The position numbers and the translations under genes are program-made. The notes beneath the pieces were generated by a model. The model was not told the origin of the DNA. It saw only the letters and a list, made by a program, of their open reading frames with translations, and did no database searches. A stretch of 64,000 nt of DNA from Flavobacteriaceae bacterium. GTDB lineage: Bacteria > Bacteroidota > Bacteroidia > Flavobacteriales > Flavobacteriaceae. Positions 2,801 to 56,930 of the stretch are shown piece by piece (position 1 is the stretch's first letter; each line of letters starts with the position of its first letter). The stretch lies in NCBI GenBank assembly GCA_965200045.1, contig OZ241330.1:293888-357887 (forward strand). Reading direction: 5' to 3'.

Positions 2801-2908
2801 AGGGATCCGTTTTAATGATACCGATCGTATAAACTTCTTGAGATATCGGATCGTTTAGCAAGTGTTGATAAGAGGTATTTTGAGTGTTATATGTTAAAAA
2901 AAACAACC

Positions 2909-3222: not shown

Positions 3223-3414
3223 ACATAATTACTTTATGTCATACAAAGATGCCATAAGAAATACGGATTTATACCAAAGTGGTAAAAGCTGACTAAAAAT
3301 AGTTGAACATGGCAAATCCTATTTCACTAAATTTTCGTCAATGATTTGATGGTGCGTATTATCCTTCCATCACATCGAATCACACTTCAAAAAGAATTTT
3401 TGAGAAAGAAAAAA

Positions 3415-3834
3415 GCCGTGGTCGAATTAAAAAAATAAGTGCAATTTTGAATAGCCAAAAAATGACTTTATAGACACAAAATAAATGCCAACTGAGCTAA
3501 TCTTGAGGCTGGCTCGATTTGACTGTTTTAATCAGTATCAAAAACAAAAAAGAGAAAAAAGCTCCGACGCCGAGCAACCATTGAACCCGTGATTGATTAT
3601 CTAAAAGATAATATCGTATGGAAGAAAACTATCTGATAGACACCCCGTCATCCACAACCAACGACTATTTGTCAACTTATGGATGGGATTTGAAGCTATT
3701 CATGGAAAAACGAGTCCGAGATGATCTCTTTTTTACTTTTTCAGAAGGCATAAATTTTCAATTCAAAAAAACTCTCATAGAAAAACTAACATAATCCCAG
3801 TCGGAGAAAATGAGTTTTTAGGGAGCAACTGACT
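3415..3834 (+). mobile_element. remnant of the 3' end of an IS5-family element, same family as 37700..39209
   Basis: The translation contains ..KKEKKLRRRATIEPVIDYLK.. with stops, compare ..QKKQKKFRRRAAMEPLIGHLK of the 37860 transposase. The DNA downstream is alignable with 37700-37860 and ends in the terminal repeat gagtttttagggagcaactgact (3812..3834). Confidence 0.6.
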
Positions 3835-3858
3835 AAAAAAACAAACCAAAAAACAATT

Positions 3859-5199: not shown

Positions 5200-5214
5200 G
5201 CTTTTGAATGGCCA

Positions 5215-37699: not shown

Positions 37700-39209
37700 A
37701 TTTAGTCGCTCCTTAAAAAGTCTTTTTTAGCGGTTATCGTTCTATTCTTTTGATGATCAAAGTTCTTTGAACTGAAAATGAAGCCCCTCTGAAAAAGTAA
37801 AAAAGAACATCTTGGACTCATGGTTCCATGAATTTCTTTAAATGCCATCCCGTAGCTGCTCAATAGGCATTGATCGTTGGGGATGGGGTGCCCATCAGAT
37901 CGTTTTCTTGCATACGATGTTCTGTTTTGAGATGGCCGATGAGTGGTTCCATGGCTGCTCGGCGTCGGAACTTTTTCTGCTTCTTTTGCTTTTGATAGGG
38001 GGTATCACTTTTCAATGGTTTGCCTGGAATCGATATCTTGGCCTCGCCAATCTGACGTTTTCCTCGACCCCCTCGATCATCGATCAGTTCTTTGGGAGTG
38101 AGACCGACGATGGATTCCTGTGGTTCCAATAAGGGTTGGATGGTTTGGCGATCATGAGGATGGCCCTCAAAAGCACGGATGGCCGTGATGATCATGGTTA
38201 GCCCCCCCCCTGTCGCGATCAGGCCGACTTGATTCCCCAATTCATATGTTTGATGAGCCTTGCCTTTGGCCATGCAAGCCTTAAACGGCTTGTCAATGGC
38301 ATCGACTTTGTTTTGATCGAATCGCTGTTGATGGATGACTTTTTGATACCATGTCAGCTCTTTTTGATATTGACTTTTTTGTTGGGGAGCTCGTTTTCGC
38401 CCGAGATCTCGGACTTGTCTGCCCGCTAAGGTCTTGAGCTTGGAGGTGGCCTTTTGGGCTTTTTTAGCTCGTCGAGGATGCTTGCCATGAAAGGTTTGAC
38501 GCACCCGTTCTTTCGAGGCTTTGGCATCGGTCTGTCTCTGTTTTATCTTTTCTTTTTCGGCGATTTTGTGGCACTGATCGATGACTTTTTGATTCCGTTT
38601 GGCATCGATCGGAAAGGTCACGTTGTTCCCTTGGACGGTGGTATCCGACAAGACCATCGATGAGGACTTCTTGATTTCTTTTTGATGCCACTGAACGGAA
38701 GAGGCAAAGATCTTTTCCACCCCTGCTTGACCCATCCGTTTTCTCATAGGACGCCCATCAGAAGGATCGCAGGGTGGTCCGTGTTTCATGAAATCAGAAC
38801 CCGTGACGTACGGCATGTAAGGATTTTCAATCCACCGTTCCATGAGGGTTTCATCGCCCAGATTGTCAAGACGCTTCACATCCAACAACCCACCATCACC
38901 CCAATGGGCTTGGCTGGACGACCCTTTGGGGAATAAAAGGAACCAAAGGCGTTTTCAAAAAAAGACCCATCCATGGCATCGGCCAGCAACTTGATCTGAT
39001 GTTTTGGATGGAGAATGGCATTGAATGCCGACGCGAATCACTGGGGCTGTTTGGGGGCTCCTTTTTGGATCATTTCTACAAGGTTTTGAGACCAAGAGAC
39101 GCATTTCCTTGCAGACTTCAAAGCCCTGTCTTGGCCAGTAGGGTATCATTCAATCTCACATATCAAGGGGATGATGGACTCTATTTGAGTTTTTAAGGAG
39201 CGCCTGAAT
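37700..39209 (-). mobile_element. IS5-family insertion sequence (about 1.5 kb)
   Basis: The imperfect terminal inverted repeats atttagtcgctccttaaaaagtc (37700..37722) and gagtttttaaggagcgcctgaat (39187..39209) match at 20 of 23 positions. The element is visibly more G+C-rich than its flanks. I could see no target duplication. Confidence 0.8.
37860..39073 (-). pseudogene. IS5-family (DUF772 + DDE) transposase with one in-frame TGA and one -1 frameshift
   Basis: From ATG 39073 the sequence reads MIQKGAPKQPQ*FASAFNAILHPKHQIKLLADAMDGSFFENAFGSFYSPKGRPAKPIGVMVG. It then shifts frame near 38889-38892 into the 342-aa track ORF (LLDVKRLDNLGDETLMERWIENPYM.. ..FRRRAAMEPLIGHLK..). The in-frame TGA is at 39040..39038. 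Confidence 0.8.
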
Positions 39210-41068: not shown

Positions 41069-41698
41069 CTACTTTGCACCGAAGTTTTTCCAATATTCAA
41101 TCCACTCATTCCAAGGATTTGGATGCTTGATATTTTCAGTAATCCAATGAACAGGTAAAGACATGGTGTTGGAATGGTTTTTCATTGCCTTCGCTCCTTT
41201 GCTACTAATGGAGATTCCTCGATGGTTTGTTCCGAATGGGGTATCCAAGTATTTTTCTTTGCCGAGTTGTTTGAAAATTTCTTTCTGTACCGAAATAGGA
41301 AAGTAAAAGACACTTTCTTTTAGTTTCCCCCAAAATATGTTGATCAACAAAATGTCCTGTTTTGGTACGTAATTTTCATATTCCTTTTTCACTTTATCGG
41401 TGTCTGCTGTCCACAGAATTTTAAAGTTTCTTTCATTGGTTACTGTTTTGATGGATAACTTTTCGCCACAGAGCAATACATCGTAATCCCTTTCGATTCC
41501 AGATGCTGGAACCACCACATTTTCTTTTCCAAACTCGGATTCAAGAAAACCCAAAATAACGTGTTCTCTCAGCACACCAACAGCAGGATTGCTTCGTGGA
41601 AATCGATTGCGCACCATATCAAAAGCTACCGGAAGGCCTTTGGTCAAACGGTGTCTTTTTGAAGAATCGTTAAAGAGAGAAACCAAACATGGGTTCAT
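41069..41698 (-). CDS. putative type II restriction endonuclease
   Basis: It lies immediately downstream of, and overlaps by 4 nt, the methyltransferase gene. The segment ..ERDYDVLLCGEKLSIKT.. fits a PD-(D/E)xK core. Confidence 0.55.
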   Translation of the reverse strand: MNPCLVSLFNDSSKRHRLTKGLPVAFDMVRNRFPRSNPAVGVLREHVILGFLESEFGKENVVVPASGIERDYDVLLCGEKLSIKTVTNERNFKILWTADTDKVKKEYENYVPKQDILLINIFWGKLKESVFYFPISVQKEIFKQLGKEKYLDTPFGTNHRGISISSKGAKAMKNHSNTMSLPVHWITENIKHPNPWNEWIEYWKNFGAK

Positions 41699-42564
41699 GA
41701 TTCTGCTTTGATGCGTTTTATTGCAGTTGCTACATATTCCGATGAGGTATCGTACCCCACATAGTTCCTTCCAGAACGAAGTGAGGCTATTGCTGTGGTT
41801 CCTGATCCTATAAAAGGATCCAAAACGATTTCTCCATCAAACGTGTACAATTGAATCAGTCTTCTCGGTAATTCTATGGGAAAAGGTGCTGGATGATGGA
41901 CTCGTTTGGCAGACTCGGTAGGAAATTCCCACACACTTTTGGTGAAGTTTAGAAATTCTTCTTTGGTAATGGTGGATGCTTTGTTTTTGCTTTCTCTATG
42001 GAATTGATCTTTAGAAAAAACAAGTATGTATTCGTGGGTGTCTCTTAATACGGGATTGGATGCCGACTGCCAACTGCCCCAAGCACAAGATACACCGGCA
42101 CTTGCCGATTTATTCCAAATAATTTCTCCTCGCATGAGAAAGCCGATATCGATCATTTGTTTGCTAATCATGGCACTGAGTGGAATGTATGGTTTGCGTC
42201 CAATGTTGGCTACATTGATGCATGCTCTTCCTCCAGGAACAAGCACTCGATAGACTTCTTTCCATACCGAATGCAACAGTTCCAAATATTCGTTTTCGGT
42301 AAGGTTTTCATCGTATGCTTTACCGACATTGTATGGTGGTGATGTTACCATCAAATGAATAGAATTGTCTGGAATTTCGTGCATGGTAACACTAGAACGT
42401 TGGTAGATTTGATTCACTAGATGATGGGGACATATCTCTTCGAACTTTTCTAATTCTAGGGCTTTTGTGTTTCCATTATCATACATTTTTCGGTTGTAAA
42501 AACGAGATGCATCATGGTTCACTCGATTCGAAGTCCCAAAGGTTTGCATTTCGGTGGTTTTCAT
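41695..42564 (-). CDS. DNA methyltransferase, N4/N6 beta-class
   Basis: Motif IV VTSPPYNVGK comes first and motif I DPFIGSGTT is near the C-terminus. Confidence 0.9.
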   Translation of the reverse strand: MKTTEMQTFGTSNRVNHDASRFYNRKMYDNGNTKALELEKFEEICPHHLVNQIYQRSSVTMHEIPDNSIHLMVTSPPYNVGKAYDENLTENEYLELLHSVWKEVYRVLVPGGRACINVANIGRKPYIPLSAMISKQMIDIGFLMRGEIIWNKSASAGVSCAWGSWQSASNPVLRDTHEYILVFSKDQFHRESKNKASTITKEEFLNFTKSVWEFPTESAKRVHHPAPFPIELPRRLIQLYTFDGEIVLDPFIGSGTTAIASLRSGRNYVGYDTSSEYVATAIKRIKAES

Positions 42565-42647
42565 GTTTTAGAATTTTAGTGTTTTCTCACGCTTAAGTTG
42601 ATTCCCTTATTCCCTGACTTTTCTTACTAACAATATTCCTTATGGTT

Positions 42648-44831
42648 TTAAACTAAGAATGCCTTTTTAGTTTCATTAAACGCTCTATACAATTGTTCTG
42701 ATGTTTTCATAAGCCATTCAAAATAAATTTCTTGTTTGGATTTGTCATCTATATTTTCTACATCTGATACACAAAGAATTCTTGAAGCTCTTTTTTCTTT
42801 GAGTTCTTGCCATTGGATTTCTTCTTTAACAAAACTTTCAAAATATTCTCTATTCTGAAACATTTGGTGAAATAACGTCTTTTTCGATGGTATGTAAATT
42901 TCCGCACCAAATCGATTTTTATGATTGCCTTTTAAATACCTTAACAGAACCACAAGAGCTCCTTTTATTTTGTGATTAGGGATCACCAAACTACACCTAG
43001 GGTTTAATATTGCTTTTTCATAAGACAGTTCTGTTCCCCTTTGTCGGGTTTTCGAATAATCTTGGAATCGTTTCCAAAAATCCAAATGTTTTTTTTGAGA
43101 CGCTGAAAGAGTTGAATCTTTTTCATTTAAAGAAAGTTCGGTTGCTTCTTGATTGTCTATATGAGGATATTTCCAAATATTCTTTGCTGTTTGAGATAGT
43201 ATCTCAGCTCGTTTCGTTATCGTGTCTACATTCCAATAATCAATGATCTTCAGAAAATCGTTCAGTCGAAGAGGAGAATGGTTAAATCCATTTTGGTGTT
43301 CCTTTTTGTACTGGAAAGACCTGTTTCCATATTCGGAATTATACCCTGTCAATGTGAGATTTCCAATAGTATTTAAATATTTATTATGTATTCTTTCCCA
43401 ATCTTCTCCTATCATCTCTTTCCAATCATTACTATTTTCAATTTCTTGGGGCATGATGTGCTCTACCGTTAAACGCGGTGGAATTAATCTCTCCCTATTT
43501 CTATCCAATTCCTCTTCCATACGACGTAGGATATAGTTTCGAACATCTTGGATGATGTGATTGGAAGTAAAGTCTTCTAAAAACTGATCATTATTTCGAA
43601 ATTTATTTTTTCCAGAAAGTTTCGTGATTTCAGATTTAAAACTGATGATGTAACGGTTTTTATTAATTTTTGAATACAAGCTGGCAAACACTTGATTGAA
43701 TCCCTCTTTACGTCCAGTAAAAAGGACCTTTCGGATTATAAAACTTTCTATATAATCTAAGATCAATAAAAATTCACTTCTATTGATTATCTCCTTCTGA
43801 TAATCGTCATAGAGACCGAGAAATAAGGGATATGCCTGAGGAATTTTAATGTCTAAACAGCATTGAAATGCCTTATGTAAGTCTCTGTCCTGTTCTTTTC
43901 CAAGAGCAATGTTTAGATAGTATTGTGAAAATACTTGGATCTCTTTAATCAGTTTTATTTTACCTGCTATGTCCGCTACTCTTATGGTATGTTCTTTAAA
44001 ATCTTCGTAAACCCGTCTTTTTTTACCCCTTCCATTTTTGAGAATGAGATATCTCCATACAAACAAAGAAAAATCTTCATTAAACTTGTCACCAAACTCC
44101 TCTTCCATAGGTTCCCATATTTTTTCATGAATCTTTTTCTGTTCGTTTTTTGGCAACCACATGAATAACCAGTTTTTGATTTTTTCAGCATCCGTTAATA
44201 ATTGACCGGTACTATTAATCGTTTCAAACACTAGTTGCGGGTCATCTATGTTTTGTTCTAGTTCTATAGCGACAAGAGATAGTCGGTACAAACCACGATA
44301 CAACCAATCCACATTTTCTTCCTTTATTTCATTAACGAAAAATTGATAACACTGGTACAGTTCTTTTTTTTTATCCTGTTCCGATAGATTCAAATTCTTG
44401 ATTAGTTTGTTAAATACAACATCGTCTCTTTTGCTTAAGATTAATTTTCTTTTATCCTCCTCGGTTGAAATCCGATTAAATAGAAACTCTTCAATCATTT
44501 TTTCGATGACTTCGGAATCGTATCTTCTTGTTGCTTTAAAAAAATTGTATAATGAAAGCACTAGCGTTATTATGGTTGTCAGTCGTTGCTGTCCATCGAT
44601 TAAATGGTAGATTCCAGGACTAGCGTGTCTTCTTGGTCTTTCTACATAATACACTATCGATCCAAGATAATGTTGCGCTTCGGTGTCTTCTTTTTCTCCA
44701 ATAGTCAAAAAATCATCGAAGATTCTTTGCCAATTTTTTTTCGTCCAGGAATACGCCCTTTGATAAATAGGAATTACGTACTGACTACGTTCCTCCATCA
44801 ATCTTAAAACGTCAACTTTTTCTACCTGCAT
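42648..44831 (-). CDS. GmrSD-like type IV (modification-dependent) restriction enzyme: DUF262 + DUF1524 + DUF4268-like tail
   Basis: DUF262 motifs IPIYQRAYSW and IDGQQRLTT. A DUF1524 His-Me-finger region LTVEHIMPQ..IGNLTLTGYNSEYGNRSF. The C-terminal ~150 aa (..HLDFWKRF..AEIYIPSKK..IQWQELKEKRASRI..) resemble DUF4268. Confidence 0.85.
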   Translation of the reverse strand: MQVEKVDVLRLMEERSQYVIPIYQRAYSWTKKNWQRIFDDFLTIGEKEDTEAQHYLGSIVYYVERPRRHASPGIYHLIDGQQRLTTIITLVLSLYNFFKATRRYDSEVIEKMIEEFLFNRISTEEDKRKLILSKRDDVVFNKLIKNLNLSEQDKKKELYQCYQFFVNEIKEENVDWLYRGLYRLSLVAIELEQNIDDPQLVFETINSTGQLLTDAEKIKNWLFMWLPKNEQKKIHEKIWEPMEEEFGDKFNEDFSLFVWRYLILKNGRGKKRRVYEDFKEHTIRVADIAGKIKLIKEIQVFSQYYLNIALGKEQDRDLHKAFQCCLDIKIPQAYPLFLGLYDDYQKEIINRSEFLLILDYIESFIIRKVLFTGRKEGFNQVFASLYSKINKNRYIISFKSEITKLSGKNKFRNNDQFLEDFTSNHIIQDVRNYILRRMEEELDRNRERLIPPRLTVEHIMPQEIENSNDWKEMIGEDWERIHNKYLNTIGNLTLTGYNSEYGNRSFQYKKEHQNGFNHSPLRLNDFLKIIDYWNVDTITKRAEILSQTAKNIWKYPHIDNQEATELSLNEKDSTLSASQKKHLDFWKRFQDYSKTRQRGTELSYEKAILNPRCSLVIPNHKIKGALVVLLRYLKGNHKNRFGAEIYIPSKKTLFHQMFQNREYFESFVKEEIQWQELKEKRASRILCVSDVENIDDKSKQEIYFEWLMKTSEQLYRAFNETKKAFLV

Positions 44832-44849
44832 AGTGTTTGTTTCCCATGT

Positions 44850-45455
44850 TCAACTTCCCACATACTTCTTCACCTTCGTTACTGTTGCCAAAGAAACTCC
44901 CAAGCGTCCACTAATATCTCTGTAAGACTTTCCTTTTTGCAATAACGAAATGATCTTTTGTGTCTTAGGTTTCTTTAAAAAAGTTTCTCGACTTTCAACA
45001 GAACCGTAGTTTCTACCAAACTTTCCACCTCGTTGTTTGTAAGCTTCCCTTCCTTGACGAATCCGTTCCGAAATAGTGTCTCGTTCCAATTCATAAACAC
45101 TAGCCATGACCGATACCATCATTTTCCATATAGGATTGGGAGAACCATCGGCTTTGCGACTGGGGAGACCCAATTCCTTTACCACAATGTTAATGTGATT
45201 GGCTTCCAAATGATGGATGGTCTGGAGCACATCGGCCGTATTTCTTCCTAATCGGCTGAGATCATCCACCACGATTTCCGTGACTTTCTTTTCTTGGACT
45301 AATTGCCATAACTGAGACGCTTGGGGACGTTCTTTAAAGGGTATCGCACCAGAAACACCCTTGTCAAAAAGCGTTATATCATAAGTGTCTTTGTCGAGGT
45401 CAAATCGCTTGCCTTCTTGTTGGTAAGTGGAGGTTCGGTTATACTTGATATTCAA
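44850..45455 (-). CDS. serine recombinase (resolvase/invertase family)
   Basis: Catalytic region YNRTSTYQQ, ..VVDDLSRLGRNTADVL.. and a C-terminal HTH (KSYRDISGRLGVSLATVTKV). TTG start. Confidence 0.85.
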   Translation of the reverse strand: MNIKYNRTSTYQQEGKRFDLDKDTYDITLFDKGVSGAIPFKERPQASQLWQLVQEKKVTEIVVDDLSRLGRNTADVLQTIHHLEANHINIVVKELGLPSRKADGSPNPIWKMMVSVMASVYELERDTISERIRQGREAYKQRGGKFGRNYGSVESRETFLKKPKTQKIISLLQKGKSYRDISGRLGVSLATVTKVKKYVGS

Positions 45456-45775: not shown

Positions 45776-46041
45776 ATTTAATGTCTCCAAAGAATTACAG
45801 TCGAACCTCTTTTTTATAGGGCTTATATACCTGAGTGCACAAAGGGAGCTAAAAAAAAGAAATTATTTTACCTTTTCAGGTGGCGTTGAGAATAGGAGTT
45901 TAGCCAATGCTTCTGGTGATTCAGCTGGTATCGATCGAGATAAGTTAAGTATATCCCTCGTTTTAGGACGGCCACGGGGATTGGATTTTGGTTTGGTTTT
46001 CATATTTACCGCAAATTTAGTGTTTTACTTAAAATTATCTT

Positions 46042-47466
46042 TCACTTCATATAACCTAATTTTTTGTTTTGTCTTCTAAGTCCAGAAAGAGTGTAAATAT
46101 TACTTTTTAGTTTATTACAAGGACCACAAAGTAAAAGTCTATTTGATATATGATTTATACCTCCATCACTTACTGGTATATTATGATCTAATTCTAAGTA
46201 CCTACAATCATTAAAGACTTTATCACATCCTTTACATTGATAACCTTGTTGATCTAATAAATGTTCAAACATTTCTTGACGACTCCATCTTTTACCTGGT
46301 GGTTCTTGAACTTTTACTTTAACTCTTAATTCAGAAGACTCTACCTTTCCATCATCTGTTCTAATTGGAACCTCTTTTTTGAAATGGACTTTTAAACAGG
46401 GAGTGTTTTTTGGAGTCTCTCCATCAATGTAAAAATTTTCATCACGCATTCTAGCTAAAATCACTTCTTCTGTTTTATCCCAAATATCTATTCCAACCCA
46501 TTTTCTACCTAAACTCTCAGCAGCTAAAATTGTTGTCGCACAACCACAAAACGGATCTAATACCATATCGTCAATTTGGGTTGCCGTTTCGATTATTCTC
46601 TTATAAAGTGTCATTGGTTTTTGTGTTGGATACCAAAAAGGCTCTGATGGATCATCACTTTTTCTTCGTTTTCTAATTGGGTTTATATCATTCCAATGAT
46701 CTTCTAATAAACGACCTCTTTCTTTTGATAAGAAAACTTCATCTAAATTCTTTGGAACTCGACCTTGATTCTTTCTAGATTTAAATTCATCAGGTCTTTG
46801 ATTTTTTAATTTTCTATACGTAATTTCTCCCTTTTCATCAAATAATGACCCAAATCTAGATATTGTCGTTTCAGAAAGAGGTCCTCTTGCTAATTTGCCT
46901 ATTCGTTTTTTTTTCGCGTTTTTAGCGTACCAAAAAATAGTATCATGTTTTGTCTTATAATAATCAGTGTTTCTTCCACCCCCGACATCTAAATAACACC
47001 AGACTATTTCATTACAAAAACTTTTTTTTCCAAAAATAGCATCTAATAAAATTTTTATATAATGTCCTACACTATAATCACAATGAAGAAATATGCTTCC
47101 AGTTTCCTTCAATATTCTTTTCATTTCAAGCAATCTTACAGCCATAAAACATAAAAAAGCACCTACGTCTGAGCCAACTTCATTTCTCTCTTTTTTTAGA
47201 TTTTCCTTAGTCTTCTTCATATGAATTTGATTAGCTGCATCGATTACTTCCCAAACATCTCTATAGCTATCATAGATTTCATCTAACCATTCTGACTTCA
47301 CATCTTTTTCCCAAGACCAACGATCTTGAAATCTAGCTGATTTATCTATTCTGTCAGGAGTAGCATGGAAATCCCTTCCTTTCTTAAAGGGAGGGTCTGT
47401 TGCAATTAAATCAACAGACTGATCATTCATCGATCTTAAAAATTTTAAATTATCGCCATGAAACAA
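46042..47466 (-). CDS. DNA methyltransferase (N4/N6 beta-class) fused to a C-terminal HNH nuclease; the natural ATG (47509) is out of frame
   Basis: Motif IV ATDPPF, motif I DPFCGCATT and a C-terminal HNH finger CKGCDK..LELDHNIPVSDGGINHISNRLLLCGPCNKLKSN. The track start is a TTG. The frame stays open upstream through the C9 tract. Confidence 0.85.
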   Translation of the reverse strand: MFHGDNLKFLRSMNDQSVDLIATDPPFKKGRDFHATPDRIDKSARFQDRWSWEKDVKSEWLDEIYDSYRDVWEVIDAANQIHMKKTKENLKKERNEVGSDVGAFLCFMAVRLLEMKRILKETGSIFLHCDYSVGHYIKILLDAIFGKKSFCNEIVWCYLDVGGGRNTDYYKTKHDTIFWYAKNAKKKRIGKLARGPLSETTISRFGSLFDEKGEITYRKLKNQRPDEFKSRKNQGRVPKNLDEVFLSKERGRLLEDHWNDINPIRKRRKSDDPSEPFWYPTQKPMTLYKRIIETATQIDDMVLDPFCGCATTILAAESLGRKWVGIDIWDKTEEVILARMRDENFYIDGETPKNTPCLKVHFKKEVPIRTDDGKVESSELRVKVKVQEPPGKRWSRQEMFEHLLDQQGYQCKGCDKVFNDCRYLELDHNIPVSDGGINHISNRLLLCGPCNKLKSNIYTLSGLRRQNKKLGYMK

Positions 47467-47488
47467 TGTGCGATTTTTCCAATTTTCA

Positions 47489-47497
47489 GGGGGGGGG
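47489..47497 (-). repeat. homopolymeric C9 tract (G9 on the plus strand) at the 5' end of the methyltransferase-HNH gene
   Basis: Counted directly: ..aattttca ggggggggg taaattg.. on the plus strand. Confidence 0.9.
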
Positions 47498-47519
47498 TAA
47501 ATTGCTCATTAATAGATAC

Positions 47520-48521
47520 TTATGACTTTTCTATAGTTTGATAATTCGGATTACTTTTCTTCAGCATTAGATACGTTAACCGTTTTCCTTCAAACCCTGA
47601 AGCCATTTGATTCATTTGCTCGGTCGTGTTCATCCCGCGCACATTATGTCGACCAGCAAATTCCGTCACGTAACGATCCAAATGCCAAGAAGATAGTTTG
47701 TGATAAGTCCCATAATAGCCACGTTTCAATAAAGACCAAAACGATTCAATGCCATTGGTGTGGACATCCCCATTGACCCATTCATTCACTGAATGTTTGA
47801 CTTTTTGGTGCATGTATTCTTTCACTAATTGATTGTACGAAGATAAATCATCGGTAAATACTTCTGTTCCCTTCTCGGTTGTTTCATTGACAAAATCCGT
47901 TAATGTCTTTGTTTTGGTGTTCTCCACCACTTGAGCTTGCACTTGATTGGTTTCCCGATTTTTAGCACCAGCGACAATCGTTTTACCAATAGCACCTCTT
48001 CCCGCTTTTAACTTCTTATCCGCATGTTTGTTTTTCTCTTTGCCGCCCATGTAGGTTTCATCCACTTCGGTTGGTCCAGAAAATAAGCATTGATTCACTT
48101 CCCATGTTTTTCTGATACGATGAGCTAAATGCCATGCAGCTTTCTGTGTAATCCCTAAATCACGATGTAATTTCATGCTAGAGACGCCTTTAATGCCTGT
48201 CGTTAAAATATAAACCGCGATTGCCCAGATACGATAACCCAATTTGGTATCCTGCATCACACTATTCACCCGCACACTAAAACGCTTCCGACAATCTCGA
48301 CAATGATAAGGCATGGATGGATGTTTTGTACCACTTAAAATATTAGTGGATCCACAATGAGGACACTTGGGTTGATGCCCCCATCGTTGAAAAGCAAACC
48401 ATTGTTCTGCTGTTTCATCATCAGGAAACATCTTCAATATCTGGAACCATGAAATCCCTTTGCGATGATACTTTCCTGGGGCGATTCCTTTTTGTTTTTG
48501 AGTTGTTTTTGGTTGATTCAT
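47520..48521 (-). CDS. IS1595-family transposase (zinc ribbon + ISXO2-like DDE domain)
   Basis: ..AEQWFAFQRWGHQPKCPHCGS..YHCRDCRKRFSV.. zinc ribbon, then ..VDETYMGGKEKN.. and ..HTNGIESFWSLLKRGYYGTYH.., typical of ISXO2-like transposases. The ORF is intact at 333 aa. Confidence 0.9.
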   Translation of the reverse strand: MNQPKTTQKQKGIAPGKYHRKGISWFQILKMFPDDETAEQWFAFQRWGHQPKCPHCGSTNILSGTKHPSMPYHCRDCRKRFSVRVNSVMQDTKLGYRIWAIAVYILTTGIKGVSSMKLHRDLGITQKAAWHLAHRIRKTWEVNQCLFSGPTEVDETYMGGKEKNKHADKKLKAGRGAIGKTIVAGAKNRETNQVQAQVVENTKTKTLTDFVNETTEKGTEVFTDDLSSYNQLVKEYMHQKVKHSVNEWVNGDVHTNGIESFWSLLKRGYYGTYHKLSSWHLDRYVTEFAGRHNVRGMNTTEQMNQMASGFEGKRLTYLMLKKSNPNYQTIEKS

Positions 48522-48780
48522 GATATCTATTTTTGTCTATTTGAATGCACAAATATACACTTTTTTCTGAAAGAATCGGTATGAAATCAAAAAAAACAAT
48601 CAATAAATCATCTTTATTTCGACCTACAAAATAGAGGTTATTTGATTTGCCGATAAGATCAATCTAAAAAATCAGTTACTTTTGAGCACTCAGGTATATA
48701 AGCCCCTTTTTTATGTCATGTTGTCATAATTTAAGTTTTTGTTAACATATGGCACGATTTTAGGCAATACACGTTTATAT

Positions 48781-49335
48781 ATGGAGAACCTTATTTCAAG
48801 AGAATTATTATTCAATACAAGACAGAAAAATCTACAGAGATCTAAAAAATTTTATCATAAAGCCATAGAGGGAAGAAAGAGAGAGAAAAAGTTCGATGAA
48901 GTATCCATCTTTCTTTCGCATAAACATGGCGAAACTGAATTAATAGAACAGATAATCGTATTGTTTGAAGACCTTGGGGTTTCTGTTTATATTGATTGGT
49001 TGGATTCAGAAATGCCAAAAACAACGAATGGTTCCACAGCAAAAAGAATAAAAGAAAAAATCCGAAGTTGCGATAAGTTCATCTTTTTAGCAACCGAAAG
49101 GGCCATTTCTTCGAAATGGTGTAATTGGGAATTAGGCTATGGAGATTCTCAAAAGTTCTTCGAGAATATTGCAGTGATACCAATTACAGAAAAACCTAAA
49201 CAAGTCTATTCAGGCAATGAATATTTAGAGATATATCCAATTATTACTTCTCAGAACAGTTATTCTATTGGTGGTGAATTTTATCTTGAATTTGAAGATG
49301 AGAAAACTGAACTTTCAGATTGGTTAAAATCGTAG
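48781..49335 (+). CDS. TIR-domain protein
   Basis: ..VSIFLSHKHGETELIEQIIVLFEDLGVSVYIDW..IKEKIRSCDKFIFLATERAISSKWCNWELGYGD.. is a TIR-type beta-alpha pattern. ATG 48781 is preferred over the track's TTG 48739. Confidence 0.75.
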   Translation: MENLISRELLFNTRQKNLQRSKKFYHKAIEGRKREKKFDEVSIFLSHKHGETELIEQIIVLFEDLGVSVYIDWLDSEMPKTTNGSTAKRIKEKIRSCDKFIFLATERAISSKWCNWELGYGDSQKFFENIAVIPITEKPKQVYSGNEYLEIYPIITSQNSYSIGGEFYLEFEDEKTELSDWLKS

Positions 49336-49338
49336 ATT

Positions 49339-49773
49339 ATGAATAATAACGAGGTATTACACAAAGAAATTGATTTAATTCAAAACGTCATTTCTAGAAT
49401 GGCGAATAACTCCTTTCTTTTGAAAGGTTGGATGGTTGCAATCATTGTTGGGGTTTCAGTATTGACTCATGATTCATTAGTTACTGACGATAGTATTTAC
49501 TTTTCTTTAATTCTTGTTTTACCTGTTTTTGTTTTTTGGTATTTAGATGCATTTTTCCTTCACAAAGAAAAGTGCTATCGAAAACTTTACGAATGGGTTG
49601 TTAAAAACAGACATAAGACAAACAAAAACTTGTACTCTCTTGATTATACCCCTTTTGAAGGCAAAGTAGATTCGATACTAAAAATAATGTTCTCTAAAAC
49701 TTTAAGAGTGTTTTATGTTATACCTATTATCATATTTATAGCAATAATTTTATACAATATTTTAAATGGGTAA
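49339..49773 (+). CDS. small 3-TM membrane protein (candidate effector or anchor of the TIR operon)
   Basis: 144 aa with an N-terminal amphipathic helix and hydrophobic spans GWMVAIIVGVSVL, IYFSLILVLPVFVFWYLDAFFL and YVIPIIIFIAIILYNIL. There is a 3-nt gap to the upstream ORF and an 8-nt overlap with the downstream ORF. Confidence 0.7.
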   Translation: MNNNEVLHKEIDLIQNVISRMANNSFLLKGWMVAIIVGVSVLTHDSLVTDDSIYFSLILVLPVFVFWYLDAFFLHKEKCYRKLYEWVVKNRHKTNKNLYSLDYTPFEGKVDSILKIMFSKTLRVFYVIPIIIFIAIILYNILNG

Positions 49774-50446
49774 GAAAATATTTGTTTCGTATAAATACGC
49801 TGACACTTTGGTTGAACGACTATCCGAAGTGAGTTTGGAAGAACAAACAACTCCAAGGGATTATCTTAATATTTTTGAGAATACTATCGAGAACAAGGAT
49901 GATATTTACAAAGGAGAATCGGATGATGAAGACCTAGGCGACTTATCTAAGTCTACAATTGAAGATAAGTTAAAAGATAGAATACGTGATAGTACTATTA
50001 CTGTGGTCTTGATTTCAAAAGGAATGAAAGAAAACAGTAAATCTGAAAAGGAGCAATGGATTCCCTGGGAAATAAGTTATTCTTTAAAAGAAATATCAAG
50101 AGGGGGTAGAAAAAGTTTAACAAATGCCGTTTTAGCCGTTGTATTACCTGATAATTGTGGATCTTATGATTATTTTGTGCAAAAAGACGTGCAATGTGGC
50201 TGTCAAACTCTAATTGTATCCTTTCTTTTTCCGATTATGAGAAAGAATATGTTTAATATAAAAAATCCTAATACAAGGGAGTGTAATTGTGGTCGTTCAA
50301 ATGTATACTTTGATGATTATCCATCGTATATCTATACTATCGTATGGAAAGACTTTATCTTGAGTTATAATAAATATATCGATATTGCCGTTTCTCTTTT
50401 TGATAAGAGAGATAGATATAACATATCCAAAGAATTAGAGGACTAG
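49766..50446 (+). CDS. ThsB-like TIR-like (DUF1863-type) protein with Cys-rich C-terminus
   Basis: KIFVSYKYAD..IRDSTITVVLISKGMKENSKSEKEQWIPWEISY.. follows the DUF1863/ThsB pattern. The tail is ..QCGCQ..ECNCG.. Confidence 0.7.
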   Translation: MGKKIFVSYKYADTLVERLSEVSLEEQTTPRDYLNIFENTIENKDDIYKGESDDEDLGDLSKSTIEDKLKDRIRDSTITVVLISKGMKENSKSEKEQWIPWEISYSLKEISRGGRKSLTNAVLAVVLPDNCGSYDYFVQKDVQCGCQTLIVSFLFPIMRKNMFNIKNPNTRECNCGRSNVYFDDYPSYIYTIVWKDFILSYNKYIDIAVSLFDKRDRYNISKELED

Positions 50447-50568
50447 CACATAAGTATTAAAGATTCGGAAAAAACCATTTCTAGCTCCACATTGTTTGAC
50501 TATTAGTTGTCTTTGTTGTTTTTGGAACACTACGATTCTCAACTGTAGCTTACACTTCAAATAAAGAT

Positions 50569-51417
50569 TTAAATATTAGAAAAGTTATCTGAACCATCTA
50601 ATTGTATCACATATCGAAATCGAACTTCATCATTTTGATCGCCACGAGTGTCGTCTTTAATTCCCAGTATCTGAATGGCTGCGTAAAGGCCTTCCATATT
50701 TTTTAGTATGGCAATCTGATTCATCTCGACCGTTCGGCATCTCGAAGTGAAATTCAAATTTTTAGCTTCCGTGACATCTGAAATTGTCTGAATTTCTTTT
50801 TGAACCAATGCAACTCCTTGAATTGAAAGCGGATCGTTGTAAAGATGAATACGTGTATGACTTGCCTTACTCCACATTGTTTCAAATTTGGCTTTTCCGG
50901 AACCTATGACGCATCTTCCATTGTAATTGCTGTAGTCAAATGTAATTTCTCCTTGTGAATTTTTTATTCTTGGGGGAGGAATATTCGAATCTTTTCCACG
51001 TAAGTGTCGAAATCCGAGTTTCTCCGCCATTTCTTTTGCTAAAAGTTGAGAAGTCGGATAATCTCTAACTTTTAAATATTGAATATCCTGATCCAAACCA
51101 GGTAATATAGAATCATCAAACCGTACAGGGAGTATTTTTACTTGATTCTCGCTCATTGCCTTCATAGAATGCTCTGCTTCTAATCTTGGCCATTTCTTGG
51201 AACAGTAATCCTTTGAAATAAATAAGACAACATAGTTGCTTTTTTCAGCATAAATGTATTCCGTGATTTCAGTTAATGATTGACCCCAGTGAGCATTTTT
51301 GCTATGAATATCATAATAAACGCTCATACCGCTTGATAATAGGAAATTTGCTATGACTTCAATATAATCTCTCTGTTCTCCAGCAAAAGATAACGCTACA
51401 TCATATCGTTTATTCAT
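50569..51417 (-). CDS. TIR-domain protein with ~140-aa unassigned C-terminal domain
   Basis: The N-terminus YDVALSFAGEQRDYIEVIANFL..YVVLFISKDYCSKKWPRLEAEH.. is a classic bacterial TIR. The C-terminal half looks beta-rich and has no recognised family. Confidence 0.85.
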   Translation of the reverse strand: MNKRYDVALSFAGEQRDYIEVIANFLLSSGMSVYYDIHSKNAHWGQSLTEITEYIYAEKSNYVVLFISKDYCSKKWPRLEAEHSMKAMSENQVKILPVRFDDSILPGLDQDIQYLKVRDYPTSQLLAKEMAEKLGFRHLRGKDSNIPPPRIKNSQGEITFDYSNYNGRCVIGSGKAKFETMWSKASHTRIHLYNDPLSIQGVALVQKEIQTISDVTEAKNLNFTSRCRTVEMNQIAILKNMEGLYAAIQILGIKDDTRGDQNDEVRFRYVIQLDGSDNFSNI

Positions 51418-53390: not shown

Positions 53391-56300
53391 CTATAACGTC
53401 TCCGGATCAATATCAAATAGATTCATGGTTTGATTAAAACGCTCTGACATTTGATTTTGAAATTCAGTAGTATCATTAGCCTCTATCATATCGACCAGAT
53501 TACTATACCTAGCAAGAATATCTGTCAGTTGATTAATGTATAATTCAAAACTTTCATCAGGAATACGCGTATAAACTTCTGCTCTCGAAGCGTATTGTTG
53601 CGCGATCTTGAGTGCAATTTCTTGAGCTTTTTGGATGGCCCCACTTTGGTAATAGGCATCGACAAATTCGGACATGGGGGTGTAGAACTCATATGCTCCA
53701 TATAGGTCGGTAAATGGGGTCGTGCTTTGGATAAATTGATCTATATAGGATTCGTATTTCTCAATATCTGCATTCTCAAAAATGGTTCTCAAACCGGTTC
53801 GATATCTTTCGATTTCAGTTAAAATTTCCGAAAGAATCATATTCTGTCGATTAAACGATAATGAACTGAAATAAGCCAATCGACCGGCATATTTTTCAGA
53901 AATTTTTTCAAATAAGTCCCTAGCCTTTTGGGGTTTGCCAATTTTGTAAAAAGTGTCTATAAAAGGATGTAATAAGGAGTAATAACCAAAAAAATCAATA
54001 GGCATTTTTTTTAATGCCAATTCAATAACCTCTTGGGCTTTATTAAATTGTTCTTCTTTAACTAATTGATTAGCAAGACGTGCAATATGGCTTCTATAGG
54101 TGATGCTATTTTTACGCGTTTCGGGGTCATGATAGATCTTGGGGTCTTCTGAATTTCCCCATTCCCATTGCATGACAATGGAATGCATTTTTTCTGAATC
54201 GATTTTTCCCATTAAATATGGATTGGATGGGTCTAATGGTGTTTTAATCGGAACTAATTTATACACCATCCCTTCTAGTTCAAGATACTCTTTCATCCAA
54301 ATATATTCGGAAGCTTCAAAACTTCCTCCAGTAAAATAAATGGGTCTTTTCCAATCGTTATTAGCTAAAATATCCAACATCATGACCTGATTTTTCGTAA
54401 GTCCAGAAGTCGGTAGATCAATATCGATATGTGAAACAATTTTAGATTCATTTTCAGGTCTAACAATCCCATATTTTAAAACATTTTCTTTATTAACGGG
54501 AACTCGGATTTTATTGGTTGGGTAGTAAATCATTTCTTGCTGGCTCAATGGTAAGTACGAAAAGTCGGGCTCCATTTCTTCTAATACATGACGGTATTTC
54601 GTTTTAGGATGATCACTTGATATCCAATTGACAAAGTCTTTGATATCCCAACGAATGGTATCATTAACCGGATGAAATCGAACATATTCTCGAGTACCAT
54701 AGGCATATTGTTCATGAGTCAATTGAGAAGGAATGGGATCGCTTTCATAAGTTTTCCTTTTCATTTGATCGATGTACCAATAGGTAGCCAGTAATGAAGT
54801 ATTGATAGTTCGAACATCGGTTCGAATGCCTTCAATTTCTTGAGCATACCAAAGCGAAAAAGTGTCATTATCACCGATAGTGAATATCATGGTTCCCGCA
54901 TCCTCTTGAAGTGACTTCAAATAGGTTTTGGACATCGATTGAGCCGTATAACGATTGGATCGATCATGATCATCCCAATTTTCAGCAAACATCAAAACAG
55001 GCACACACAATAGTGCAACCAAGACCATCAGAGGCCGCATCAAATGTGGTTTGAAACGTTGCCAAAGCCCGGTCAAATAGTACGCGCCCAAGCTAATCCC
55101 AATAGAAAACACATAAAAAGATCCAACCAAAGCATAATCCCGTTCTCTAGGTTCAAAAGGACGTTCATTTAAATATACTTTGAGTGCTAAACCGGTAAAT
55201 AAAAATAAAAGCAAGAGTTTCCAAAAGGTTTTTTTATCTTGATTATACAGAAAAATAAAGCCCAAAAGACCTAGCAAAAGAGGTAGAAAATAGTAAGTAT
55301 TGCGTGCTTTGTTGTTTAAGGTATCTTGATCTAAAGCCGATTGATTCCCCAGTCTCACTTTGTCTATAAATGGGATTCCACTAATCCAATTCCCATGCAA
55401 AATGGAATAATCTCCTTGGATATCGTTTTGACGTCCTGTAAAATTCCACATAAAATAACGCCAGTACATATAGCCCATTTGAAAATTGAGCAGAAAGGCC
55501 AAATTATCAATCAGTGTGGGTTTTGATATTTCCAAATACCTTCCATAGGACCTAAAAAAATCATCATAATCTTCTCCTGTCAATAATCCTTGTTGCCCTC
55601 GAAGCTGAAAGTCACTAATAATACTTCGTAATTGCTGACTAGCCCCATATTCGGGTAAGATTGAAAATTCTAGCGGCCCAATAAAGTTCATATAGTTCGC
55701 CGCGTTCTGAGTACTCCAAAGTCTAGGAAGCAGTCCTTTATGGTCTGAATGGCTATTGATTCGAGCCCCTTGCCAATTATTAACTACCACATATCGCCTA
55801 TTTTCTAGATCTTTTTCATACTTGGGTTTATCATCTCGAAATGGTTTGGCTGGATCTTGGCCAGCGTACATATCTGAAAACATGGGACCATAAAACAGAT
55901 ACGTATCTGGATATTGTTCCATTCTATAGTAAGCTAAAAGAGTCCTTGCATCGGAAGGGTCATTTTGGTTGATAACCGTATTGGCATTGGCTCGAATGGG
56001 AAGCATCATCCATGAAGAAAAACCAATGAAGAGAAATAAAACACACAAAAAGGCTGTATTCAAATGCACCCAATTTTTTTTTGCTGTCAAGCGAAGGGAC
56101 AGCACAAAAACCAGAGCAATCAATAAACCGGCAAAAATGGTCCCACTATTAAAGGGGAGCCCCAAAGTATTAACAAAAAACACTTCCGTTTCACCGAAAA
56201 AGGCTAGCGTATTAGGCAGTAATAATTTGAATATAAATAATAAGATGGCAATGGATATTACATTGGCCAGCAAAAATCCTTTGACCGTGGTTTTGGAGAA

Positions 56301-56930
56301 ATTTTTGAAATAGTATACCAGCCCAATCGTGGGGATGGCTAACAGAGCCATAAAATGCACCCCAAATGAAAAACCAATTATTAGTGACATCAATACTAAC
56401 CATTTATAACCCCTTGGTTTGAACATATCTTTTTCCCAACGCAATGCCAACCAAAACAAGGTGGCTAGAAAACACATGGCCATGGCATACACTTCGGCTT
56501 CTACAGCATTAAACCAAAAACTATCCGAAAAACAAAAGGCTAACGATCCGACAGTAGCACTGCCCCAAAAAGAGATTTTTGATGGCAGATTGTTTAATGT
56601 AGAAAATGTTGGTAATTTCCTGAGCAGGATTGTAGTGGTCCAAAACATAAAAAGTACAGTAAATGCACTTGAAATGACCGACATAAAGTTGACCATTAGG
56701 GCAACTTTTTCTGGACTTGAAGCAAAGGTTGCAAAAAAGGCTCCCACCATCTGAAAAAATGGGGCCCCCGGAGGGTGTCCTACTTGCAGTTTTGCTGCAG
56801 TGGATATGTATTCACTGGCATCCCAAAAGCTTGAAGTGGGTTCAACAGTCAACCCAAATGTAATCAGAGCAATAATGAAAATAGACCAACCCCAGATATT
56901 ATTCCAGCGTTTGTAAATATTTTCATTCAT
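53391..56930 (-). CDS. DUF2723-domain membrane protein (glycosyltransferase-like) with TPR-like C-terminal region
   Basis: ..LTVEPTSSFWDASEYISTAAKLQVGHPPGAPFFQMVG.. is the hallmark DUF2723 N-terminus. It has more than 10 TM helices and a long soluble helical C-terminus. Confidence 0.85.
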   Translation of the reverse strand: MNENIYKRWNNIWGWSIFIIALITFGLTVEPTSSFWDASEYISTAAKLQVGHPPGAPFFQMVGAFFATFASSPEKVALMVNFMSVISSAFTVLFMFWTTTILLRKLPTFSTLNNLPSKISFWGSATVGSLAFCFSDSFWFNAVEAEVYAMAMCFLATLFWLALRWEKDMFKPRGYKWLVLMSLIIGFSFGVHFMALLAIPTIGLVYYFKNFSKTTVKGFLLANVISIAILLFIFKLLLPNTLAFFGETEVFFVNTLGLPFNSGTIFAGLLIALVFVLSLRLTAKKNWVHLNTAFLCVLFLFIGFSSWMMLPIRANANTVINQNDPSDARTLLAYYRMEQYPDTYLFYGPMFSDMYAGQDPAKPFRDDKPKYEKDLENRRYVVVNNWQGARINSHSDHKGLLPRLWSTQNAANYMNFIGPLEFSILPEYGASQQLRSIISDFQLRGQQGLLTGEDYDDFFRSYGRYLEISKPTLIDNLAFLLNFQMGYMYWRYFMWNFTGRQNDIQGDYSILHGNWISGIPFIDKVRLGNQSALDQDTLNNKARNTYYFLPLLLGLLGFIFLYNQDKKTFWKLLLLFLFTGLALKVYLNERPFEPRERDYALVGSFYVFSIGISLGAYYLTGLWQRFKPHLMRPLMVLVALLCVPVLMFAENWDDHDRSNRYTAQSMSKTYLKSLQEDAGTMIFTIGDNDTFSLWYAQEIEGIRTDVRTINTSLLATYWYIDQMKRKTYESDPIPSQLTHEQYAYGTREYVRFHPVNDTIRWDIKDFVNWISSDHPKTKYRHVLEEMEPDFSYLPLSQQEMIYYPTNKIRVPVNKENVLKYGIVRPENESKIVSHIDIDLPTSGLTKNQVMMLDILANNDWKRPIYFTGGSFEASEYIWMKEYLELEGMVYKLVPIKTPLDPSNPYLMGKIDSEKMHSIVMQWEWGNSEDPKIYHDPETRKNSITYRSHIARLANQLVKEEQFNKAQEVIELALKKMPIDFFGYYSLLHPFIDTFYKIGKPQKARDLFEKISEKYAGRLAYFSSLSFNRQNMILSEILTEIERYRTGLRTIFENADIEKYESYIDQFIQSTTPFTDLYGAYEFYTPMSEFVDAYYQSGAIQKAQEIALKIAQQYASRAEVYTRIPDESFELYINQLTDILARYSNLVDMIEANDTTEFQNQMSERFNQTMNLFDIDPETL

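Follow-up and report, generated by a model that had tools for sequence, protein, structure and literature searches.

How restriction-modification (R-M) genes move between genomes is a long-standing question, and the linkage of these genes to mobile elements is well documented; to our knowledge, there are few clear examples in which a simple single-transposase element with intact ends has an R-M module inside it. The concept of the transporter insertion sequence (tIS) in the IS1595 family reportedly goes back to Siguier, Gagnevin and Chandler in 2009 and to ISfinder/TnCentral. Such tIS have been described as restricted to the IS1595 and IS66 families (bioRxiv 10.1101/2021.05.26.445724; PMC3129680). 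Here we analyzed a stretch of 64,000 nucleotides from a Flavobacteriaceae bacterium (contig OZ241330.1 of assembly GCA_965200045.1; hereafter the window), and we consider it highly probable that 45818-48706, a unit of 2,889 bp, is an autonomous IS1595-family tIS that moves a compact R-M module, namely a methylase-nuclease fusion, and that combines a phase-gated cargo with an accessory small protein. Like the described tIS, this ~2.9-kb unit has a zinc-ribbon DDE transposase, short inverted repeats (IRs), an 8-bp target site duplication (TSD) and passenger genes inside its ends. Unlike tIS as described, the clade to which it belongs has a cargo slot with fixed boundaries, in which near-identical backbones hold differing R-M modules in every case examined; it also has a distal small AT-hook-like open reading frame (ORF) and, in one sub-lineage, a leader with a homopolymer tract at the slot entrance.

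An R-M unit of comparable form was described in Neisseria gonorrhoeae NCCP11945 by Furuta, Abe and Kobayashi (2010; PMC2853133), who reported 26-bp IRs, an 8-bp TSD, type IIG R-M and S genes and a COG3677 transposase-like gene, and for which an empty site was seen in N. meningitidis (PMC2853133). The window element has the same IR length and TSD size and likewise holds R-M genes and a transposase gene in one unit. The Neisseria unit differs in that it is a single case with a probably inactive transposase and a truncated cargo, and in that no family with exchangeable cargo was reported for it; the comparison is with the published description. A literature search on IS1595 in connection with R-M, passenger genes, sponges or TnpB returned only the tIS concept and this 2010 case, and the basic interpretation is therefore already known. 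In the searchable literature we did not find a description of the refilled R-M slot, the conserved small ORF or the tract at the slot entrance.

Two other known systems bear on the cargo. Phasevarions are based on simple-sequence repeats in the mod/hsd genes of Haemophilus, Neisseria, Helicobacter and Campylobacter. As in phasevarions, a G/C tract in the 5' part of the methylase gene sets the reading frame in the window element, and sister elements vary in the length of such tracts; unlike in phasevarions, the tract lies at the entry of a transposon cargo slot, is common to elements with different cargo, and is found in uncultured Flavobacteriaceae-like hosts. Single-chain R-M enzymes of Type IIC/IIG (Eco57I, MmeI, BcgI) mostly combine gamma-class methylases with an N-terminal PD-(D/E)xK nuclease. 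The window cargo also has a methylase and a nuclease in one polypeptide, but its predicted methylase is beta-class (TDPPF before DPFCGC) and its predicted nuclease is a C-terminal HNH domain.

The boundaries of the element are well defined. Direct reading of both ends showed that 45818-45843 (AGGGCTTATATACCTGAGTGCACAAA) matches the reverse complement of 48681-48706 (GGGGCTTATATACCTGAGTGCTCAAA) at 24 of 26 positions, as claimed in a first-pass annotation of the window, with mismatches at positions 1 and 22 of that alignment; in a repeat search the arms reached 32 nt at 88% identity (45819-45850 and 48674-48705). The 20-mer core of the IR is found at only two places in the 64-kb window, where shuffled sequences lead one to expect 0. 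A perfect 8-bp TSD, TTTTTTAT, abuts both ends of the element (45810-45817 and 48707-48714), again as previously claimed, and we calculated from the base composition of the window that the probability of eight out of eight bases matching (8/8) at a fixed position is ~3e-5. The first-pass annotation had named loss of this IR and TSD pattern upon computational re-examination as a ground for dropping its interpretation, and the pattern is present. An alternative 9-bp duplication with GGG..CCC ends was rejected, as the flanks mismatch in that register. The terminus nGGGCTTATA resembles the ISSod11-group consensus, which serves as a lead to a possible subgroup.

All genes of the element are on the minus strand, in the order transposase-side IR (IRL), transposase, 10-nt spacer, leader with C tract, cargo, 46-aa ORF and small-ORF-side IR (IRR), and the coordinates are collected in Table 1. 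The transposase scored 138 bits against the ISXO2-like DDE domain PF12762 (3e-40; cutoff 27), 31.7 bits against PF12760, a zinc ribbon shared with IS1 (1.5e-7; cutoff 25.4), and 172 bits against the NCBIfam IS1595 model NF033547 (cutoff 75). In an alignment of the window protein with 11 relatives at 54-92% identity, the invariant columns D154 (EVDETY), D224 (TDD) and E259 (NGIES) and the zinc-ribbon cysteines (CPHC..CRDC) were all kept in the window protein, and the transposase therefore looks intact. These domain scores and residues bear out the earlier call of an intact zinc-ribbon/ISXO2-like DDE transposase, and the DDE domain, zinc ribbon, IRs and 8-bp TSD together agree with its assignment to the IS1595 family. 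The promoter is presumably located in the region between the transposase gene and IRL. A scan of the element for sigma-70 promoters and terminators gave fewer matches than shuffled sequence and was not used, and an Rfam scan of the whole window gave no match.

Table 1. Features of the element and its immediate flanks, in window coordinates.
Feature	Position	Strand	Basis or remark
TSD copy 1, TTTTTTAT	45810..45817	.	Identical to 48707-48714; sister elements also with 8-bp AT-rich duplications
IRR, small-ORF-side terminal inverted repeat	45818..45850	-	Terminal base A; G in all other ends examined
Conserved 46-aa ORF (MKTKPKSNPRGRPKTRD..STPPEKVK) with lysine-rich N-terminus and GRP AT-hook-like core	45863..46003	-	ORF scan; backbone, not cargo
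Backbone segment upstream of small ORF, motif CACTAA(A/C)TT(T/C)G; right-hand slot boundary	46004..46033	-	DNA homology resumes here
Cargo body: predicted beta-class N6_N4 DNA methyltransferase (~46471-47415) and C-terminal HNH nuclease (~46099-46236)	46042..47488	-	Pfam, PADLOC, alignment, AF2/Foldseek
Homopolymeric C9 tract (G9 on + strand), between leader ATG and methylase body	47489..47497	-	Same-junction tracts in L038 (C9) and L014 (C12)
Leader start ATG AGC AAT TTA (MSNL)	47498..47509	-	Common to L038 and L014
10-nt spacer, transposase stop to leader ATG	47510..47519	-	Same spacing in L001, L002, L014 and L038
IS1595-family DDE transposase, 333 aa, N-terminal zinc ribbon, intact	47520..48521	-	Pfam, NCBIfam, alignment
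Region upstream of transposase gene, within element	48522..48673	-	~90% DNA identity to L001, L002, L038 and L042
IRL, transposase-side terminal inverted repeat, begins GGGGCTTATATACCTGAGTGC	48674..48706	-	IR comparison
TSD copy 2, TTTTTTAT	48707..48714	.	Direct read

The view of the element as a cargo carrier is supported by its relatives. A scan of species-representative genomes for the IR core yielded 30 loci (loci have handles in L), in which all ends begin GGGG and the other exact-match ends all begin GGGGCTTATATACCTGAGTGC; further look-ups added L033, L035, L037, L038 and L041-L047. The closest transposase in the protein collection, P0001 (94% identity), lies on a 574-kb contig (L001) where identical 21-nt termini (GGGGCTTATATACCTGAGTGC) bound a 3.8-kb unit composed of the transposase, the 10-nt spacer, a C5 methylase, MTaX1 and a 46-aa ORF. 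A second, partial transposase copy, P0002, is 91% identical and probably shares one contig with the cargo gene of the window. Altogether we found five other complete elements, each flanked by a perfect 8-bp AT-rich TSD: L001 (TAAAATTA), L002 (AAAAGTTT), L038 (AAAAAAAT), L042 (TTAAAAAA) and L037 (AAACTTAG). The first four have identical 21-bp termini, the same small ORF and ~89-91% DNA identity, and transposase protein identity is ~94% for the two that were measured, L001 and L002. L037 is more distant (63% transposase identity) and has related termini (IR GGGGATTACATACCTGAGTACCC). In blastn extensions, the flanks of the window insertion showed weak similarity to those of the L002 insertion, which was judged an AT-rich coincidence.

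The cargo between these ends, typed by Pfam and PADLOC and in some cases by precomputed Pfam, differs from element to element. Whereas the window and L033 have an N6_N4 methylase-HNH fusion, we found a C5 methylase with MTaX1 (L001, L009), with an NgoFVII-like endonuclease (L002), with an HNH_2 protein (L031) or with a type II restriction endonuclease (REase_II; L037); a single chain of HSDR_N, N6_Mtase and specificity domain (TRD) in L014; an N6_N4 methylase with an Endonuclease VII/His-Me protein (L027), as a fusion to Mrr_cat (L038) or with an unknown protein of 231-246 aa (L041-L047); and an Eco57I-like methylase placed after the small ORF (L035). Relatives with related ends and transposase thus hold at least nine other R-M modules, five of them in complete elements and three further types in partial copies. 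Every cargo seen combines a methylase with either a nuclease or a partner known from R-M systems. These different R-M modules between the same boundaries support the earlier proposal that the methyltransferase-HNH gene is moved as a passenger inside the unit.

The limits of DNA homology to the relatives define the cargo slot. On the transposase side homology extends to ~47542, inside the last ~7 transposase codons and ~20 nt before the stop, and in the comparisons with L014 and L038 it runs on through the leader as far as the C tract (47489 and 47476). On the other side, backbone homology resumes at ~46033-45994, about 20-30 nt before the small ORF, and all close relatives have the motif CACTAA(A/C)TT(T/C)G ahead of the small-ORF ATG. 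This leaves ~46034-47541 as the exchangeable segment of the window element. No integron-like recombination site was seen at the cargo boundaries, where only the short conserved motif before the small ORF was present; cargo could possibly be exchanged by recombination between the conserved arms, or by illegitimate events filtered by selection. The more distant relative L033 has a 64%-identical methylase-HNH fusion at the same position. Right after the IRR of L033 (L033:6811-8284) we observed a 58-nt copy of the transposase 3' end, a second and different methylase-HNH gene (418 aa) and a second small ORF, an arrangement that is either a tandem cargo unit or one element inserted in another. L035:5001-7973, a 66%-identity relative, has the order transposase, small ORF, Eco57I-like methylase with an internal G9, and IRR, which shows that a position after the small ORF is also open to cargo; at that locus no transposase-side repeat was found. 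L027 (JAPORV010000175.1, labelled Aestuariivita sp.) was considered as a cross-phylum copy and rejected: this 2.4-kb contig, with 36.5% GC, carries a near-identical Flavobacteriaceae-type element and is probably mis-binned, and it therefore gives no evidence for transfer into Alphaproteobacteria.

One component of the backbone, a 46-aa ORF between the cargo stop and the inverted repeat, had been overlooked in the first-pass annotation. Its product is 76-98% identical in L001, L002, L009, L014, L027 and L031 (93% for the L001 copy), and the ORF is also present in L038. The comparison of window and L001 gave 14.5 synonymous versus 3.5 non-synonymous differences, and pN/pS was 0.03-0.25 for the reliable pairs among close relatives. 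Homologues are recognisable in L035 and L037, beside transposases of 63-66% identity, and share the lysine-rich N-terminus, the GRP core and a C-terminal IPxxPExLAKxLxSxPPxK. The small protein had no match in Pfam, NCBIfam or PADLOC. Judged by this pattern of conservation, the 46-aa ORF is a real backbone gene. R/K-G-R-P is the core of AT-hook DNA-binding motifs, and because the protein has a GRP AT-hook core and every target duplication is AT-rich, we propose that it may have a DNA-binding accessory or regulatory role.

The cargo itself combines two recognisable domains. The body ORF, which is unbroken for 1.4 kb and ends at a stop codon at 46042-46044, matched PF01555 (6e-41) and PF01844 (HNH; 5e-7), and PADLOC assigned it to MTase_II. 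In this 474-aa ORF, TDPPF (residues 23-27) precedes DPFCGC (residues 304-309), i.e. motif IV lies before motif I. Throughout the methylase-HNH family these two motifs are invariant, as are the HNH D-H..N..N residues and two CxxC pairs, and all of them are kept in the window protein; for D427-H428, N442, N451 and the CxxC pairs this was seen in 39 relatives. The AlphaFold (AF2) model had a mean pLDDT of 78.7, and its best Foldseek matches were the beta-class N6-adenine methylases CcrM, RsrI, M.BceJIV and MboIIA (E down to 7e-16), while the sequences nearest to the HNH part were the Cas9 HNH domain and McrA. The architecture is widespread, with more than 100 full-length relatives listed at ~50-67% identity, and it is conserved and selected as such. 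A 67%-identical relative, L032, stands alone without IS features, and the fusion is therefore a self-contained module that also exists outside these elements. In addition, the methylase modules of the window protein and of the L038 methylase-Mrr fusion share 36% identity over 325 aa, and the two fusions have one type of methylase joined to different C-terminal nucleases. We infer that the cargo is a single-chain R-M enzyme, in which an HNH nuclease is combined with a beta-class methylase that is sequence-specific, probably modifies N6 of adenine and contains a recognition region of its own.

The start of this gene is different from what had been assumed. The first-pass annotation placed a methyltransferase-HNH fusion 10 nt downstream of the transposase; the domains and the 10-nt spacing to an ATG stand, but the frame from that ATG is not intact. 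The leader ATG (47509) is read as MSNLPPP followed by a stop codon, and the methylase body (..PPPENWKNRTLFHGDNL..) lies in another frame across the C9 tract. A tract of C8 or C11 would join leader ATG and methylase frame, giving MSNLPPPENWKNRT.. There is no in-frame ATG upstream of the conserved N-terminus of the body, and since the residues right after the tract, NWKNRTLFHGDNL, are the conserved N-terminus of the methylase-HNH family, the true start must lie upstream, across the tract. The source annotation starts the cargo protein at an internal Met (P0121, 462 aa, MNDQSV), and therefore the deposited sequence has the same frame problem.

Tracts of this kind recur in the family. At the slot entrance, ATG AGC AAT TTA C9 in the window corresponds to ATG AGT AAC TTA GAT AAT A C9 in L038 and ATG AAT AAT TTA CAT AAT C12 in L014. 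In L038 the methylase is also out of frame, C10 or C7 would be required to correct it, and the conserved methylase N-terminus, NRNWVRHLHASDCL, comes after the tract; the L014 leader, on the other hand, is unfused to the cargo, which has its own start codon ~100 nt downstream. Other tracts lie inside cargo genes. At the LQKIGGG site of the C5 methylase, G9 is in frame in L001 (7157) whereas G8 is out of frame in L009 (3131), and the two appear from their sequences to be an ON/OFF pair. Furthermore, at the 3' end of the N6_N4 methylase of L041-L047, seven otherwise identical contigs (L041:4268, L042:4269, L043:1528, L044:210, L045:124, L046:1 and L047:1), of which at least six come from separate samples or runs, the tract is G8 in 2 contigs and G9 in 5. 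There, G8 ends the methylase just before the next ATG, G9 adds 35 aa, and one further G would fuse it in frame to the downstream ORF, which is presumed to be the nuclease. Within the window, 3 runs of at least nine G or C were observed versus 0.02 expected. Slipped-strand phase variation through such tracts is known from R-M genes of host-adapted bacteria, and we read the window cargo as phase-variable and currently OFF.

In the mechanism that we propose, the zinc-ribbon DDE transposase would bind the 21-bp conserved termini and integrate the complete element at AT-rich 8-bp targets, which are duplicated in the process; whatever lies between the ends would be carried along, and a compact R-M module would thereby be moved. 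The cargo would probably be co-transcribed with the transposase, and its translation would be gated by the C tract, with C9 being OFF and slippage to C8 or C11 being ON. The small basic protein would be an accessory factor of the backbone, most likely DNA-binding, with a role in transposition or regulation. The cargo may help the element through defence and post-segregational stabilisation, and the element would in turn give the cargo mobility.

Several points count against this interpretation. We know of no biochemical study of the IS1595 transposition mechanism and of no characterised enzyme of the methylase-HNH type; the label of single-chain R-M enzyme draws on domain content and on the cargo company of the sister elements, and the role given to the small ORF is guessed from its composition and location. 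The tip of IRR reads AGGG in place of the GGGG that is otherwise invariant in every other end examined. In DDE transposases the terminal nucleotide is usually critical, and for this reason the G-to-A change may disable or impair that end. The window cargo is out of frame as assembled, the tract-length variation observed comes from sister elements, and the source assembly may have been built from long reads, in which homopolymer errors are common. With the element absent, the window locus would read CAGTCGAACCTCTTTTTTATGTCATGTTGTCAT; the corresponding empty-site pattern CGAACCTCTTTTTTATGTCATGTTG was unmatched in JGI metagenome contigs, as was the 21-nt IR, and exact-protein look-ups for the window transposase, P0121, P0002 and a flanking ThsB-like protein, in an index without the source genome, did not find a second copy of the exact 2.9-kb unit. 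The mobility of this particular cargo version is therefore inferred from relatives. Consequences follow for two earlier claims. That of a recent single transposition agrees with the perfect TSD, which is its sole support, the empty site not having been found in the JGI metagenomes; that of a modification or restriction phenotype spread by transposition is reasonable, and is qualified by the out-of-frame cargo, the altered IRR tip and a recency that is read from the TSD.

Part of the same evidence could be taken to mean that the element is a decaying relic, which arrived by transposition and is now immobile, with one end blocked by the terminal G-to-A change and with C9 as an inactivating frameshift. 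The terminal base is unlike that of all other ends examined, the leader ATG is out of frame, and cargo decay does occur in the family, as seen from the broken methylase genes in L031 and L009 and from L021, where only an N-terminal methylase stub is left. However, the transposase keeps all its invariant residues, the small ORF is intact and the TSD is perfect; no further lesion is seen in the 1.4-kb methylase-HNH body, in which all invariant catalytic residues are kept; and the frameshift sits exactly in a hypermutable tract that is conserved at the same junction in relatives. We regard a relic as unlikely, while giving it real weight.

A second alternative concerns the assembly: the true tract could be C8 or another in-frame length, in which case the gene would be intact and constitutively translated from the leader ATG. 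Homopolymer length errors are the commonest error of long-read assemblies, and related records are named like long-read assemblies of metagenome-assembled genomes (MAGs). We consider such an artefact quite improbable, because the G9 at 24304-24312 of the same window encodes an in-frame Gly-Gly-Gly in an 812-aa ribonucleotide-reductase-like ORF (23444-25882), which argues against a systematic miscalling of 9-mers in this assembly. In addition, L038, an Illumina-style scaffold, has at this junction a C9 that likewise breaks the frame, differences between G8 and G9 are also repeatedly seen in short-read assemblies, and the P0121 gene call puts the same frame problem in the deposited sequence. The third G/C 9-mer of the window is a C9 at 38202-38210 in a 342-aa ORF (37860-38888) that has no Pfam match and lies in a patch of 49% GC versus ~36% for the window; this ORF may be foreign DNA or another phase-variable gene.

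The cargo might also be something other than an R-M enzyme, for example an orphan or epigenetic methylase whose HNH domain serves in nicking (for mobility or homing) or as a toxin. As far as we know, no such methylase-HNH fusion has been characterised, relatives are also found outside IS elements (L032), and the HNH part is nearest to generic McrA/Cas9-type domains. Against this, all other cargo in the slot consists of a methylase together with a nuclease or some known R-M partner, and in the L038 Mrr_cat fusion a homologous methylase is joined to another nuclease, as one would expect of R-M modules. Elements with non-HNH cargo also have 8-bp TSDs, and the HNH domain is therefore dispensable for transposition. 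A role outside R-M thus seems to us decidedly improbable.

Still less probable, in our judgement, is that C9 is functional as it stands and that translational recoding yields a low level of full-length enzyme by +1 frameshifting at CCC_UGA, keeping a toxic R-M enzyme scarce. The leader does run ..CCC CCC CCC UGA when read in the zero frame, a +1 slip leads into the methylase frame (..PPP ENWKNRT..), and CCC_UGA is shift-prone by an RF2-type mechanism. But L038 would need a -1 shift and lacks a stop codon behind the tract, and the leader of L014 is unfused to the cargo, so that the elements do not share a consistent signal; moreover, tract lengths vary between samples in sister elements, which slippage at the DNA level fits better. 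Finally, the chance juxtaposition of a transposase-only IS and a resident methylase-HNH gene, with a solo or unrelated far IR, is effectively refuted, since the TSD copies lie outside both ends of the complete 2.9-kb unit, the region of small ORF and IRR beyond the cargo has 82-89% identity to its counterpart in sister elements, and five other complete elements have the same layout.

With the tIS reading preferred, the location of the element can be considered. It is intergenic, with a serine recombinase gene on one side (44850-45455, minus strand) and a TIR-domain gene or operon on the other (from 48739 or 48781, plus strand). The window has 36% GC and contains a gene for a SusC-type TonB receptor, and the transposase cluster nearest to that of the window is from Flavobacteriaceae MAGs; these features point to a probable Flavobacteriaceae-like host, and the names of several records hint at sponge-associated communities. 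The surrounding genes (41069-45455 and 48739-51417) include a ThaI-like REase with an N6_N4 methylase, GmrSD with DUF4268, the serine recombinase (Mpi-invertase-like), TIR_2, a membrane protein, a ThsB-like TIR protein and a second TIR_2, and these R-M, GmrSD and TIR neighbours confirm the claimed insertion into a defence island. Downstream, a TMEM260-like gene (53391-56930) is 92.5% identical between window 53406-55499 and L001:10925-13015, whereas the island genes are HATPase/Z1/DUF4420/AIPR in L001 versus ThaI R-M/GmrSD/TIR in the window. The two related genomes therefore have the same neighbourhood, with different defence genes and with IS copies that carry different cargo. Among other relatives, the L042 element (1870-5206) is inserted between McrB-like and McrC-like genes and probably splits a McrBC-type restriction operon, and in L041 and L043-L045 the element has a Dam-like methylase with a PD-(D/E)xK gene and a STAND ATPase as neighbours. 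Defence islands are thus frequent insertion sites and not universal ones, L037 being an exception.

The family moves R-M genes between sites and genomes, and the clade offers a compact and tractable vehicle, 3-4 kb in size, with one transposase, one small accessory ORF, one exchangeable slot and natural variants. Copies of the same IS with different cargo in the same variable island of two related genomes suggest how defence islands diversify. If the tract is a real switch, a potentially toxic R-M enzyme could be carried silently into a new host and turned on later. Both types of fusion, methylase-HNH and methylase-Mrr, are possible new single-chain restriction enzymes. More tentatively, and with rather more doubt than confidence, we suggest that this IS1595 tIS clade may be a plug-and-play R-M shuttle as a whole, with a fixed slot that is refilled, phase control by leader and tract in a sub-lineage, an AT-hook-like accessory protein and AT-rich target sites often in defence islands, and that the same 21-bp termini may occur across phyla, apparently in sponge-associated communities, and bound TnpB cassettes in Rhodothermales.

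Searches in other replicons added little to the distribution of the element. The sole match of the element in a plasmid blastn search was 88 nt inside the transposase gene, and the best match of the transposase in a plasmid tblastn search was 43% identical (a plasmid from a cultured organism), with uninformative neighbourhoods where these were examined. In viral contigs the IR had one partial match, with a TAGG terminus, at the short locus L034.

Mobile insertion cassettes (MICs) and miniature inverted-repeat transposable elements are mobilised in trans, e.g. MIC231 of IS231 (PMC3129680). Elements of a comparable form were observed in Rhodothermales, where TnpB-only cassettes and their short derivatives have IS ends and a TSD without a transposase of their own; unlike in MIC231, the gene in the cassette encodes a TnpB-like RNA-guided nuclease homologue. 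The Rhodothermales MAG OZ241874.1 has six such cassettes of 1.35-1.38 kb, 93-95% mutually identical and bounded by the IS1595-type termini GGGGCTTATATACCTGAG.. (L005:3945-5306, L012:2852-4232, L017:321-1702, L025:1530-2910, L030:5286-6667 and L015:6446-7799), and five of the six have a perfect 8-bp AT-rich TSD. Their sole gene is TnpB-like (418-425 aa; Cas12f1-like TNB, OrfB_IS605), its stop lies a few nt from the inverted repeat, and there is no IS1595 transposase inside. A literature search found no report that links TnpB with IS1595-type ends; if confirmed, these cassettes would link RNA-guided nucleases to a DDE transposon family in bacteria. Shorter elements of ~0.9-1.0 kb with the same termini, in which only remnants of the TnpB N-terminus are left, were found at L016:3793-4665, L006:5053-6033 and other loci (Rhodothermales MAGs JAJECV/JAJEFL); the L016 copy has the TSD AAATTTAA, and these elements look like non-autonomous derivatives mobilised in trans.

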